Origin: a phage
Assembly (NCBI GenBank): GCA_018027755.1
Contig: GCA_018027755.1_4098.1
Reading direction: 5' to 3' (one strand)
Length of the DNA stretch: 64,000 bases
Positions within the stretch are counted from its first letter, which is position 1. Each line of letters opens with the position of its first letter. A program made the position numbers and the translations under genes. Below the pieces are notes generated by a model that saw only the letters and a program-made list of their open reading frames with translations, had not been told where the DNA came from and searched no databases. Of the stretch, positions 13,623 through 21,062 are shown piece after piece.

Positions 13623-14588
13623 GTGAAAAAGCTTGATTTAAATACAATTGCCGAAGAAGTTCTGGATGAATGTTTTGCTAATGAAGAAGTCAACACACTA
13701 GAAGCCTTAGATTTCGTTGAAGATAAAGATGAAAATGAAGGTAAAGTACAAAGCAGTTTCAAATATAATATTACACTTAAGCGACCACCAAATGTTTCCA
13801 ATGAAGATCTAATTCGTGATATTCAAGCTGGTATCAATGTAAAGAAAAACACTGAACTGTTAGTTCGTTACAATTATGGACTTATTATTGATGTAGCAAG
13901 TAAATGTACTTGTTATATCCCATTTGAAGATAAGATTTCATATGGTGTTGAGGGGTTCATGAGAGCACTAAAAACCTTTGATCTTAATAAGAATGTTAAG
14001 TTCATTACCTATGCTTCTTCTAGTATTTACATGACAGTCTATAACGAAAGTTCTGACGCTAACTATATGGTACACTTCCCACGTTATATGAGTGTTCATA
14101 AGATCAAAGTAAAAAGATTCTGCCAGGAATATATGCGTAAACATGGTGTTCGCCCAACTCCTGAAATAATCTCAGAGGGTACTGGGATTGAGATTCAGCA
14201 TGTTAATAATTGTTTGTTATTTCAAAGCGAATACACTTCGCTGGATGCACCATTAGACGGTGTTACAGATGGTACATTAGGTGACATTATTCATTCACCT
14301 GCTTCTGATTTTAACCTCAATGTTGATAGTATTCGTGCACCTTTACGTTATGCTATCAATGAACTGACTAACGAATTGAGTACTAAAGAACGTGAGATTA
14401 TCCAGCGTGTTCATGGTCTAGGTGAATATGAACCTGAAACGCTTCGTGAGATTGCTGATAATGGTTTTGTTGATGATAATGGAAAATATGTTAAATCCCG
14501 TTCATCAATACACCGAAAGTACAGTGAAGCTATGCAAAAGCTTAAGAAGCTAGTACTTGCAAAAGGGTACGAATACGAAGATTTCTAA
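13623..14588 (+). CDS. sigma-70 family RNA polymerase sigma factor
   Basis: GTG start after AGGAG; region-2-like segment (GVEGFMRALKTFDLNKNVKFITYASSSIYMTV) and region-4-like HTH (STKEREIIQRVHGL...TLREIA...RSSIHRKYSEAMQKLKK). Confidence 0.8.
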   Translation: MKKLDLNTIAEEVLDECFANEEVNTLEALDFVEDKDENEGKVQSSFKYNITLKRPPNVSNEDLIRDIQAGINVKKNTELLVRYNYGLIIDVASKCTCYIPFEDKISYGVEGFMRALKTFDLNKNVKFITYASSSIYMTVYNESSDANYMVHFPRYMSVHKIKVKRFCQEYMRKHGVRPTPEIISEGTGIEIQHVNNCLLFQSEYTSLDAPLDGVTDGTLGDIIHSPASDFNLNVDSIRAPLRYAINELTNELSTKEREIIQRVHGLGEYEPETLREIADNGFVDDNGKYVKSRSSIHRKYSEAMQKLKKLVLAKGYEYEDF

Positions 14589-14596
14589 AGAAAAAA

Positions 14597-14615
14597 GGTT
14601 GGCTTATGCCAACCT
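14597..14615 (+). terminator. intrinsic terminator
   Basis: ggttggcttatgccaacc followed by T7. Confidence 0.65.
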
Positions 14616-14619
14616 TTTT

Positions 14620-15140
14620 TTATGGGATGAAGTAAAAGTTTGTGATATAATTATCTTGTACAATTCTGTTGGCATGATATTCATGTACCTGATCCACTCG
14701 AAAACGTAGAGGGCAGTTGAGCAGTCCGACAGTGCGAACAGCAAAAGAAACCCGTTAGATGTGGGCATAGTTTGAACCCCTCACGGCAATGCGGCTGTAT
14801 AAAGAACCACGTTAGGATAGCTGGTGGTTCCTTGATAGACATATAAGGATAACACCTTACGAATTATCTAAGGGAGAGTTATCGAATTTTGTACAGGAAA
14901 GTTGCGTCCAAAATTTGAGTACTCACATTAAGTATTTGATTGCATAGATACTTAATGAAGATACACTATGTTTAAAAGTGTAGACCGTCATATGAAACTG
15001 AAGTAGAGAGAAACAGGATGACCCGCTTTCGCACTCGTTATGAGTAATCTTCAATGCAATAGCTCTGATACCATCAGCGTCAAATTTCCCTCCTTGGGGG
15101 GGGAAGAAAAATCCCTTCCTCAAATCCCGTCAATATTAAA
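14620..15140. other. ~0.5-kb non-coding stretch, GC-richer than its surroundings
   Basis: No credible ORF on either strand; sits between a terminator and a promoter (TTGACA 15153, TAGAAT 15176); contains hairpin-capable segments such as ccctccttggggggggaag. Confidence 0.4.
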
Positions 15141-15238
15141 AGTCCTTGACAGTTATTAATCATTCGCGTAGAATACGTAGTATTAGAAGCGAACAGACAT
15201 CTCGAAGAGATGGATGATTAACCATTAAGGAATATCAA

Positions 15239-15676: not shown

Positions 15677-16465
15677 ATGAGCACTATAGATGAACTGATT
15701 CGACGGAATTCAAAATATTACCAACCATCAGAAATTGTAGGTAACATTACCAAATCAGAGTTTGGTCCAAATACTCGAAAACTCATTCATGTAATGTCAC
15801 GTGATGGCTTTAAATGTGATTGTTGCGGTGAATCTAATGTAGTATTCACTTTACACAAGCACAGTACTAAAGATCGTTATAAATTCAGACCTTATGTACT
15901 TAAAGGGAAACGCCTTGTACGCATGACGTTAGACCATAATGTACTGGACTGTCTTCAGGGCGGTAATGATAAAGAGAACATGACTGCACTGTGTGAAGAT
16001 TGTAACGCATTACGCCAGCATAAGTTTGCTGAATACAGTGAGTTTAAACACTGGTATCATAACGCGGATCGTTCAATCGAGCCTGACGTTAACTACTGCT
16101 TCATTGAGTACATTAAGAATGCCAAAGATACATACATTCTTAAATCAATGTCACCTATTACCGTGTTTCCTGAGAACCTATTCACTACATTAAAGAATAG
16201 TTTTATTGTAGGTGATATTGATGCATTCAAGTATTTTGACAAAGGTGCAAAACATTTTGAAATTCAATGTCTTAGTACTGCACTATGTGAACTCATTAAA
16301 ATTTACATAAAAGAGTATTTGGGTATTGACAATGTACGTGTACCAGAGTATACTTTTTCTATTGAATTCGATTGTGAATCAATCAAAGAGTTTGGAATTC
16401 TTTTCAATAAACAAATAGAACTTGCAATTCAAAACGAAATCAAGTACTATACTACTAACATTTAA
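15677..16465 (+). CDS. HNH endonuclease
   Basis: CDCCGE...LDHNVLDCLQGGND.EN..ALCEDCN motif. Confidence 0.7.
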   Translation: MSTIDELIRRNSKYYQPSEIVGNITKSEFGPNTRKLIHVMSRDGFKCDCCGESNVVFTLHKHSTKDRYKFRPYVLKGKRLVRMTLDHNVLDCLQGGNDKENMTALCEDCNALRQHKFAEYSEFKHWYHNADRSIEPDVNYCFIEYIKNAKDTYILKSMSPITVFPENLFTTLKNSFIVGDIDAFKYFDKGAKHFEIQCLSTALCELIKIYIKEYLGIDNVRVPEYTFSIEFDCESIKEFGILFNKQIELAIQNEIKYYTTNI

Positions 16466-19723: not shown

Positions 19724-19941
19724 ATAGATACTATGTTGTGTATGAACACGTCTCTGAATTTAATAACATACGAGGTTATTCCAGAGTTGTCACAAAGATG
19801 GATGTATTCATTCGTGCTCTTAGTGAAGTGGATGCACTGTTTAAATTGTTTGATGAAATTACAAAGTATAACACACCCAAAACACACCGCTATGTGGAAA
19901 CTGTACATAGCATTATACTAACTGAAAGTGATGAGGAATGA
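19720..19941 (+). CDS. hypothetical protein
   Basis: ORF in track. Confidence 0.5.
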   Translation: MNRYYVVYEHVSEFNNIRGYSRVVTKMDVFIRALSEVDALFKLFDEITKYNTPKTHRYVETVHSIILTESDEE

Positions 19942-19944
19942 TAA

Positions 19945-20163
19945 ATGAATTTATATCTAGTTGAAGGTTTAGTACAAGTCTATAAACCAGAAGGTGAAGG
20001 TCAACGTTTTTCACACGTAGAAGAATTTAAGTACGTTGTACAGGCTGATGGTCAGTACGATGCGGAAATTCAAGTAGATGAATCATTCCGTAAGAAAAAT
20101 GAAATTGGTAAATTTCAATACCAGAACTTACAATATAAAGTATGGCCTAGTATAAATGACTAA
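19945..20163 (+). CDS. hypothetical protein
   Basis: ORF in track. Confidence 0.5.
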   Translation: MNLYLVEGLVQVYKPEGEGQRFSHVEEFKYVVQADGQYDAEIQVDESFRKKNEIGKFQYQNLQYKVWPSIND

Positions 20164-20371
20164 GATGTGGTGGTGTCATGGTGTATATAACGTGTATGTA
20201 AATGGTAGATATAAAATGTCTAGTACCTATGCAAGACGTGTTAATGCGAACAACCAAGTTGATGCTGCTTGTGAGATCATTGAGTGGTATGCTGAGTTCA
20301 ATGCACCTGACTATATGTACGAAATAGTTACAATAAATGTTGTACAAATCGATACATCTTTGATACAATAA
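20156..20371 (+). CDS. hypothetical protein
   Basis: ORF in track. Confidence 0.45.
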   Translation: MTKMWWCHGVYNVYVNGRYKMSSTYARRVNANNQVDAACEIIEWYAEFNAPDYMYEIVTINVVQIDTSLIQ

Positions 20372-20401
20372 CCACATCAAAAAATTGCATCTGAGGATAC
20401 T

Positions 20402-21062
20402 TATGTTAGTTAATCTTAATTTCATCACTTCACCTGACTGGGCATTACGTGGAGTTTCTTTAAACTTCAAGGAAACTATGTTTGACTACATTGGTGAGTG
20501 TACATTGGTAAATGCAACTTTTGATCCAAATCATCCGTTTTGGGCTGAAATTCATGATCCAAATGTAAACAATACATCTGTTATGACTATTGTCCAGACT
20601 AAACATGCAGGTATCCTTGCAGGTTATCGACCTGCACATGCAATTGAACATTTCACTGATTACGATGTCGTGGATGAATACCCAATGATCCATGAAGATG
20701 GAAGTCTATACACATCTGAAGACTTCCGTGCTATCTTTAATAGTACTGATGATATTCTACCAAGTGGACGTCCACGTCCTGAGTCTTATCTTATGCATCC
20801 ATCTTATGGTGTAGCAGATACGCTTGAACAGATTATGAAGAAGTACAAGAACCTAATTGAAGGTCCAGAAGAAATTGTCTTGTGCTATCACCCAGTACTT
20901 AAGTCTGAACAACCAAAGGATGGTGGATGGCGTTGGCATAAGAATGGTGAGTATATCGGTACTAAACGAAGTAAAGAACGTTTTGAGTACTTGTATGATG
21001 AGCCAGATGTTGATGTGGTTTTGTGTTATAATTTTATTAAGGTGAAAAAGAAATGTATCTAG
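20402..21062 (+). CDS. hypothetical protein
   Basis: Track ORF 20385..21062; start moved to ATG after GAGGATACTT. Confidence 0.5.

Follow-up and report, generated by a model that had tools for sequence, protein, structure and literature searches.

A probable new family of large pseudoknotted non-coding RNAs in RaK2-like jumbo phages

We analysed a 64,000-nucleotide (nt) stretch of phage DNA (contig GCA_018027755.1_4098.1 of assembly GCA_018027755.1; hereafter the window), in which a first-pass annotation had marked positions 14620–15140 as a non-coding island rich in guanine and cytosine (GC), lying between the terminator of a sigma-factor gene and the next promoter. Together with its flanks, the island is 99.7% identical to Escherichia phage vB_EcoM_G17 (G17) and 99.4% identical to phage 121Q, both of which belong to Asteriusvirus, a group of RaK2-like jumbo myoviruses of ~350 kb. 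The sigma-factor open reading frame (ORF), at 13623–14588, is RpoD-like and is annotated in G17 as a ‘putative RNA polymerase sigma factor’. Hairpin letters AAAAAAGGTTGGCTTATGCCAACCTTTTTTT at its 3′ side mark the terminator (~14596–14620), which the G17 record also annotates, mapping to ~14596–14615, as does the UE-S1 record. With this terminator on the left and a promoter at 15146–15174 on the right, the first-pass placement of the island was correct. The 121Q and G17 records carry no annotation within the equivalent of 14620–15140. The locus is laid out as follows.

14596–14620, + strand: intrinsic terminator of the sigma-factor gene, hairpin GGTTGGC-TTAT-GCCAACC then a T-run; left boundary, outside the RNA.
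14643–14651, + strand: predicted extended −10 promoter TGATATAAT, bearing the family motif TGnTAnAAT; predicted start ~14658.
14658–15135, + strand: whole structured RNA, body plus 3′ tail, ~478 nt, delimited by the extent of nhmmer hidden Markov model (HMM) matches, ~70% cross-genus identity and covariation.
15146–15174, + strand: sigma-70-type promoter of the next gene block, TTGACA-17-TAGAAT, 11/12 matches; right boundary, outside the RNA.

What lies between these boundaries is, very probably, the gene for a trans-acting structured non-coding RNA (ncRNA) of a new family, ~480 nt long and running from ~14658 to ~15135 on the + strand. A blastn search of 50,697 phage records returned matches in 62–72 records, all of them RaK2-like jumbo phages, at 68–100% identity; the hosts of these phages are Escherichia, Salmonella, Klebsiella, Erwinia, Serratia, Yersinia, Pectobacterium, Cronobacter and Xanthomonas. 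Between genera, this non-coding DNA is ~68–72% identical over ~450 nt, and each record has several matching places. The whole genome of 121Q has the element at full length four times, always on the + strand and within an unannotated gap of 0.6–0.85 kb; the mutual identity of the copies is 63–74%.

121Q 90.3 kb, + strand: copy 1, the equivalent of the window copy.
121Q 192.8 kb, + strand: copy 2, in an unannotated gap.
121Q 247.5 kb, + strand: copy 3, in an unannotated gap.
121Q 326.7 kb, + strand: copy 4, flanked on the opposite strand by the endonuclease VII gene and a baseplate hub gene.

R1, a covariance model built on the 3′ domain, detected exactly these four copies in 121Q and one in the window, at 14924–15066 with 104 bits, every true copy scoring 104–121 bits; nhmmer matches with the HMM spanned 14657/14658–15142. 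Neither blastn nor R1 found a second copy in the 64 kb of the window, and the paralogs of the window copy lie outside it. The near-invariant core block (14833–14876) served as a search pattern, and pattern scans of IMG/VR gave 3–4 loci per jumbo-phage contig of ~350–380 kb, the exception being a contig that is truncated at its end. In Mimasvirus, Eneladusvirus and metagenomic relatives, the copies group with others of their paralog type, not with those of the same genome, from which it follows that the paralog set is old and has been retained.

The four 121Q paralogs gave an early sign of structure, in the form of invariant blocks between helices with compensatory changes. We aligned 41 non-redundant copies (<97% identical) with MAFFT, unfitted to any structure, and derived helices manually from the column statistics of this alignment. 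This yielded a model of 20 helices and 99 pairs, with three pseudoknots; RNAalifold, applied to 18 sequences, predicted 69 pairs, with compensatory double changes at 38. Standard pairs filled 95.2% of the cells in the manual model, compared with 77.0 ± 0.4% after shuffling and 36–42% when the partner was slid by 1–3 columns. Pairs changed on both sides numbered 73 (50.6 shuffled; 27–37 slid), the covariation score was 0.495 (0.174 shuffled; 0.06–0.10 slid), and none of 500 shuffles attained the observed value of any of the three measures. The three pseudoknots are each 99.7–100% paired, with several pair types apiece. An alignment of related copies, a check that the first-pass annotation had proposed for related phages, reveals compensatory changes at 73 of the 99 pairs, and among its three suggested origins for the island (a structured RNA, an intron remnant or a decayed gene) the structured RNA is strongly supported.

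The pairing also identifies the strand. Several pairs alternate between G–U and G–C or A–U: pair 376:387 is U–G in 34 copies and C–G in 7, and pair 451:472 is G–U in 27 and A–U in 14. As these positions, and the tail hairpin described below, would be C–A mismatches on the opposite strand, selection acts on the + strand RNA, and the + strand is the folded strand. The parts of the RNA are these.

14666–14735, + strand: 5′ pseudoknot domain, helices 1–4, defined by covariation.
14666–14672 with 14726–14732, + strand: helix Ha.
14673–14677 with 14681–14685, + strand: hairpin Hb.
14689–14716, + strand: hairpin Hc, with conserved loop GAAAACGUA.
14721–14723 with 14733–14735, + strand: 3-base-pair (bp) pseudoknot helix, clamping the 3′ strand of long-range helix Ha.
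14738–14742 with 14794–14798, + strand: branch He, enclosing Hf and Hg; 4/5 pairs doubly changed.
14752–14755 with 14783–14786, + strand: Hf.
14763–14765 with 14777–14779, + strand: Hg, with conserved loop CAUAGUUUGAA.
14804–14830, + strand: variable hairpin Hh, GAACCAC...GUGGUUC, helices 8–9; 7/7 pairs compensatory.
14833–14876, + strand: near-invariant core strands GAUAGACAUAUAAGG, CCUUAC and UAAGGGAG, defined by invariant alignment columns.
14844–14847 with 14856–14859, + strand: short hairpin Hi, helix 10.
14876–14878 with 14922–14924, + strand: helix Hj, helix 11.
14926–15060, + strand: 3′ pseudoknotted core, helices 12–18, 96–100% paired.
14926–14937 with 14946–14957, + strand: hairpin Hk.
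14939–14945 with 15054–15060, + strand: pseudoknot PK1, 7 bp, between the Hk loop and a partner strand 110 nt downstream.
14962–14964 with 14980–14982, + strand: Hl.
14987–14991 with 15018–15022, + strand: Hm, 5 bp, the third pseudoknot, interleaving with Hn and Ho.
14999–15003 with 15049–15053, + strand: Hn.
15006–15010 with 15026–15030, + strand: Ho.
15033–15035 with 15043–15045, + strand: Hp.
15072–15083, + strand: direct-repeat motif copy 1, CAUCAGCGUCAA, at the end of the main body.
15087–15106, + strand: C-run/G-run tail hairpin, UUCCCUCC-UUGG-GGGGGGAA, helix 20, 97.6% paired.
15123–15133, + strand: direct-repeat motif copy 2, AAUCCCGUCAA, at the end of the conserved tail.

The coordinates of Ha and Hb were re-registered by eye. 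The middle pair of the 3-bp pseudoknot helix (92:105) is U–A in 17 copies, A–U in 15 and C–G in 9, with zero exceptions. The branch at 14738–14798 comprises helices 5–7, of which helices 5 and 6 are 100% paired, and holds the invariant single strands GAAACCCGUUAG and CAAUGCGG. Further downstream, Hj encloses an optional module, UUUGUACAGGAAAGUUGCGUCCAAAAUUUG, that some paralogs lack and others have in duplicate. In PK1, pairing reaches 99.7% and 6/7 pairs covary, a signal that does not separate intramolecular from intermolecular pairing. The 3′ core has its own invariant strands, GACCGU, AGAAACAG and ACCCGCUU, and these are unpaired in the model, as are GAAACCCGUUAG, GAUAGACAUAUAAGG and UAAGGGAG. 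Two candidate pairings were rejected: a long-range helix (185–188/473–476), which overlaps the better-supported Ho and varies mostly between G–U and G–C, and an alternative hairpin CCUUA/UAAGG (Hi_alt), whose pair 266:281 is standard in 30/41 copies compared with 41/41 for the Hi pair 254:266.

All members have the conserved tail, in which the C-run/G-run hairpin is followed by CAAAUC(Y)CGUCAR, ending at 15133 in the window. The hairpin varies by U–G to C–G changes only, its G strand being invariant. The direct repeat, A-Y-C-N(N)-CGUCA-R, which stands at corresponding places throughout the family, behaves differently from a helix: the variable letters of its two copies change together as identical letters, not as complements, and in a divergent subfamily both places read CNACGAAG instead. 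The repeat could provide two sites for one partner, mark processing sites or descend from an old duplication resembling phage attachment (att) sites; it is also possible that its copies are alternative partners of one upstream strand (GACGA or UUCG).

The claim that 14620–15140 holds no credible ORF was upheld. The longest ORFs overlapping the region encode 66, 54 and 53 amino acids on the − strand and 50 and 39 on the + strand; no ORF is conserved among the 41 family members, whose longest ATG-initiated ORFs range erratically from 0 to 81 amino acids on either strand, and non-triplet insertions and deletions are dispersed along the family alignment. The elevated GC content is real (0.399, and 0.416 within the RNA itself, compared with a window-wide 0.348) but modest, about 1.5 standard deviations, or the 93rd percentile of 521-nt windows; both 1-kb flanks are at 0.35. 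In database records, spurious ‘hypothetical protein’ ORFs have probably been annotated over RNA genes, as at 247799–247954 in 121Q (gp516). Small ORFs are also annotated over RNA loci in the SHEFM2K, JP4, E9.1, BAU.Micro_ELP-22 and SD-* phage records, some GenBank records having 3–5 small ‘hypothetical protein’ ORFs per RNA locus; a covariance model would correct such calls in several of them. Elsewhere in the window, a 60-nt cassette occurs four times (59513–59572, 60191–60250, 60755–60814 and 61557–61616; 80–100% identical). It contains a near-consensus promoter, TTGCAA-17-TATAAT, and three of its four copies lie just upstream of a small ORF; the 2 kb of the 121Q record matching this region (135194–137161) are unannotated.

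Judging by sequence signals, the RNA gene is presumably transcribed. The TGnTAnAAT motif occurs within 60 nt upstream of the body in 61 of 64 distinct members, and in 32 of the 64 the main body runs straight into a T-run terminator, which the window copy lacks. Many members also have TGAAAC(G/C) ~17 nt upstream of the −10 element (for example, L010:2400–2440, L012 and L081), an element that the window copy does not have at the right spacing. It matches the TGAAACG −35 of the ‘divergent RpoD-like promoter’ that precedes DNA-metabolism genes in phage CBB (PMC5259590). In one paralog type (L120, L045, L036, L032 and L035, from Mimasvirus/Eneladusvirus-like contigs), a GC-rich hairpin with T6 stands between the −10 element and the body and might serve for attenuation or to protect the 5′ end.

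The family extends beyond jumbo phages. When 185,579 species genomes were scanned, four assemblies proved to hold a near-full-length copy, each time at the edge of an integrated element: the chromosome of Serratia fonticola, Serratia sp. 2723, Silvania hatchlandensis and a metagenome-assembled genome (MAG) of Enterobacteriaceae. The S. fonticola, Serratia sp. 2723 and Silvania copies adjoin a large serine recombinase, in one neighbourhood with two ParB-like genes and in another with a CI-like S24 repressor, while the MAG copy adjoins a CI-like repressor, and the sequence retrieved around it contains no integrase. Two of the bacterial copies (L068 and L069) converge on the CI-like repressor gene. 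The core genes just past the islands are rof/tilS, miaB, a peptidase M20 gene and thiM/thiD, and this layout recurs, with a tyrosine integrase, in a metagenomic relative. In S. fonticola GTA-SR07 (L071) and in L073, the RNA ends an element whose genes include those for two ParB/RepB-like proteins and a large serine recombinase. Adjacent to it are tilS and a tandem pair of rof genes, a duplication which suggests that the element integrated at rof or close to it.

A separate scan of 5,426 complete E. coli genomes found a copy in two. That of E. coli LR-29-1 (NZ_AP027515) is complete, with promoter, terminator and tail (RNA at ~19925–20545 of stretch L141), and its ~10-kb island is bounded by ffs and ybaA. 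The island also carries insertion sequence IS3, integrase fragments, a resolvase and PDC-M45 candidate defence genes (DuOB, DUF488 and DUF4326/mSLOG). In a divergent metagenomic subfamily, the middle and 3′ domains are retained along with PK1 and the tail, but the 5′ domain is a different one with more GC; the subfamily is found beside T4-type baseplate or DUF6267 phage genes or in bacterial-looking surroundings. The RNA’s own promoter, its four paralogs per genome and its occurrence outside phages had all gone unnoticed in the first-pass annotation.

We compared the RNA with known families. An Rfam scan of the whole window at gathering thresholds, the check that the first-pass annotation had suggested, returned only tRNA-Thr and no known family at the RNA locus. 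Permissive Rfam 15 scans (E ≤ 10) of the window copy, the E. coli island copy and the divergent L096 copy gave noise only, in the form of the upstream terminator and random small nucleolar RNA and microRNA matches. Models of group I/II introns, ribonuclease P (RNase P), transfer-messenger RNA (tmRNA), ROOL, GOLLD, OLE, HEARO and riboswitches had no match in three divergent members, and those of RNase P and introns had none even at E ≤ 10 in a 1-kb search. ARAGORN reported no tmRNA in the window and only the tRNA-Thr(UGU) at 1519–1593, on which Rfam agrees and which is the last gene of the phage tRNA cluster. In the searchable literature we found no description of the RNA or of a RaK2-like transcriptome. 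As far as Rfam 15 and that literature show, the class is undescribed.

In the explanation that we favour, host RNA polymerase probably transcribes the RNA from its own extended −10 promoter (14643–14651), and the RNA, which folds compactly with several pseudoknots, would act in trans as an RNA or an RNA–protein particle and not as a regulator of neighbouring genes. It is one of four anciently diverged paralogs in RaK2-like jumbo phages, with relatives at the cargo edge of integrated elements of Enterobacterales; because phages and integrated islands share it, its function would serve mobile elements generally. The retention of four paralogs across the sampled genera, the invariant single strands tens of nt long and the spread to islands together point to an important, probably sub-functionalised role.

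What that role might be is a more speculative matter. If the RNA does represent a new ncRNA family, its position in cargo regions beside integrases, repressors and defence candidates leads us to guess, with well under even confidence, at a self-folding particle that binds a host or competitor factor, or acts on it chemically, during infection, in counter-defence or take-over. It may be catalytic, as has been proposed for ROOL, GOLLD and other large ‘ornate’ RNAs of phages; its size, pseudoknots and invariant junction strands are a combination also seen in ribozymes and in those RNAs. A broader proposal, likewise tentative, is a new class of large multi-pseudoknotted RNA, either a ribozyme or an RNA-only or RNA–protein particle, serving as a weapon or tool of Enterobacterales mobile elements. 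Such a particle, perhaps built from the four paralogs, might neutralise host defence or take over a host machine, and islands and prophages would have borrowed the RNA to act against, or to imitate, jumbo phages. Large conserved pseudoknotted RNAs are rare and their orphan classes few (OLE, GOLLD, ROOL, HEARO and raiA); many large pseudoknotted RNAs have historically proved to be ribozymes or central machines. The presence of the RNA in cultivable E. coli phages (121Q, PBECO4, G17, phAPEC6 and Sharanji) makes genetics, RNA sequencing (RNA-seq), structure probing and cryogenic electron microscopy (cryo-EM) directly feasible, and in the best-understood host.

Several observations weigh against this explanation or parts of it. 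The hairpin-capable segments described in the first-pass annotation are present, but the folding energy of the single sequence is unremarkable and uninformative (z = −1.85 for the + strand and −2.16 for the − strand, not significant); the structural evidence is covariation, not folding energy. The structure model accounts neither for the co-varying identical direct repeat nor for the persistence of the conserved tail even behind the terminator in half of the members. The RNA start (~14658) and 3′ end are themselves predictions from sequence. No protein partner is universal beside the RNA, where we found only syntenic phage genes and one weak pair shared between two islands, and an RNA–protein particle is therefore conjecture; a role in conflict is likewise a guess, drawn from genomic context. 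A literature search found no Asteriusvirus transcriptome. Homology to the long non-coding RNAs (lncRNAs) of phage PA5oct, discussed below, would have tied the family to expressed RNAs of a related phage; nhmmer had no match at the ncRNA001/002 locus (L030), and R1 had none in the four ncRNA regions (L030, L142 and L143), its sole match (E = 4.9) lying elsewhere.

Among the competing explanations, a ribozyme, either self-processing or acting on another substrate, overlaps with the explanation we favour and is unlikely, though less so than the others. The invariant strands would form its active site and the CGUCAR motifs its processing or ligation sites. Three pseudoknots combined with long invariant unpaired strands are what one typically sees in a large ribozyme, the neighbourhood holds no conserved protein partner, and two identical-letter motifs stand at candidate 3′ ends. 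Against this, no known model matches (group I/II introns, RNase P, hammerhead, twister or others), and CAG[A/U]UGAG departs at required positions from the hammerhead core in a comparison by eye with the consensus; we rejected a hammerhead-like reading of this motif, which has no model support. Far less probable is a cis-acting leader (an attenuator, antiterminator or riboswitch) that governs read-through into downstream genes. It would fit the lack of a terminator between the window copy and the next gene block, the terminator inside the conserved unit in half of the family, the promoter-proximal terminator-like hairpin of one paralog type and the CGUCAR repeats, which could pair alternately with the same upstream strand. 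However, a strong, independent promoter stands at 15146–15174 between the RNA and the next ORF, the genes on either side of paralog 4 and of its 7t3 ortholog run on the opposite strand, the bacterial copies L068 and L069 converge on a repressor gene, the proteins encoded downstream show no relationship from copy to copy, and an RNA of ~480 nt with three pseudoknots far exceeds known leaders. It is from the first four of these observations that we infer action in trans.

The remaining alternatives are less probable still. Four dispersed copies in the same orientation within a 350-kb T4-related genome recall multiple replication origins, and copies lie beside integrases in islands, with direct repeats flanking the tail; yet an element acting as DNA (an origin, a recombination or att site, or a packaging signal) is very improbable, because helices kept through strand-specific G–U intermediates and covarying long-range and pseudoknot pairings indicate selection on a folded single strand and not on duplex DNA. 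The variant in which the transcript primes an origin, like ColE1 RNA II, shares that low standing and would not need such complexity. We consider it just as improbable that the tail hairpin (UUCCCC..GGGGGGAUGA) is a solitary mimic of a CRISPR (clustered regularly interspaced short palindromic repeats) repeat, a type I-E RNA anti-CRISPR on a carrier RNA. The tail matches the Rfam family CRISPR-DR57 weakly, at 15.5 bits (E = 2.4), far under the gathering threshold of 39 bits. It also resembles by eye the enterobacterial I-E repeat, UUCCCCGCGCCAGCGGGGAUAAACCG, with which it shares stretches of ≤6 nt. The RNA does occur in defence and counter-defence contexts, and hosts commonly carry I-E systems, but the tail is nearly invariant across phages of hosts whose CRISPR repeats differ, and the mimic would leave a structured body of 430 nt unexplained.

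The two other origins offered in the first-pass annotation, an intron remnant or a decayed gene, did not survive, and covariation and the ORF survey effectively refute them. In their favour, GC-rich intergenic islands can be gene relics, and HNH endonuclease genes occur nearby in the phage, among them a 262-amino-acid ORF at 15677–16465, which the 121Q record calls an HNH endonuclease (gp170) and which lies three genes downstream of the RNA. We found no link between this ORF and the RNA. There are no flanking exon halves: the RNA is intergenic with a promoter of its own, the sigma-factor ORF is complete, stopping at 14588 ahead of a dedicated terminator, the next ORF is served by a separate promoter, the other 121Q paralogs lie between unrelated complete genes, and no group I/II intron model matches. 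As for a decayed gene, the family shows no conserved ORF on either strand in 41 members, its substitutions are compensatory in helices and not codon-patterned, and ~70% nucleotide identity across genera with such changes implies purifying selection on an RNA fold, not decay.

A trans-acting structured RNA of a new family remains our preferred explanation, and it has several points of contact with known large RNAs. RNase P RNA, group I introns and tmRNA are similarly compact and pseudoknotted, and the strands at their junctions are likewise invariant. By eye, ACAGAGCAACCCGCUUUC and other short stretches resemble conserved regions of RNase P; this RNase P-like reading of two motifs was rejected, as no RNase P model matched. 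Genes for tmRNA are often found beside integrases, and in this respect the RNA resembles many of them. The order of its helices, however, differs from that of RNase P, group I introns and tmRNA, none of which is known to have four paralogs per genome.

The lncRNAs of the related jumbo phage PA5oct (ncRNA001–004) offer another parallel: they were defined by RNA-seq, number four per genome and include two that are abundant throughout infection, so that such phages do make abundant long non-coding RNAs (PMC7318152). Like the RNA described here, they come from the same broad phage lineage and from unannotated + strand gaps, of 0.25–0.6 kb, although their sequences are unlike by eye. The abundant ncRNA002 (L030:15952–16402) and ncRNA001 (L030:2264–2499) are unrelated to the present family.

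OLE, the raiA motif and HEARO are comparable in size class, in their long conserved single strands between covarying helices and in their pseudoknots. They differ in that their models do not match and that no oapA/B/C, raiA or IscB gene lies nearby in the loci fetched. The hosts of ROOL and GOLLD are mainly Lactobacillales and bacteria of rumen and lake, whereas the RNA described here belongs to Enterobacterales and their jumbo myoviruses; it also matches neither Rfam model, does not lie beside tRNA clusters and has four diverged paralogs per genome. The likenesses to ROOL and GOLLD, for which cryo-EM structures exist (PMC12286853), are nevertheless several: all are highly conserved RNAs of several hundred nt with many covarying helices and pseudoknots, encoded by stand-alone genes of phages or prophages with no obligatory protein partner. 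What the RNA shares with the large ncRNA classes is thus a general character (>400 nt, many covarying helices, pseudoknots and carriage by mobile elements), and its likeness to ROOL, GOLLD, OLE, HEARO and raiA is one of kind, not of family membership.

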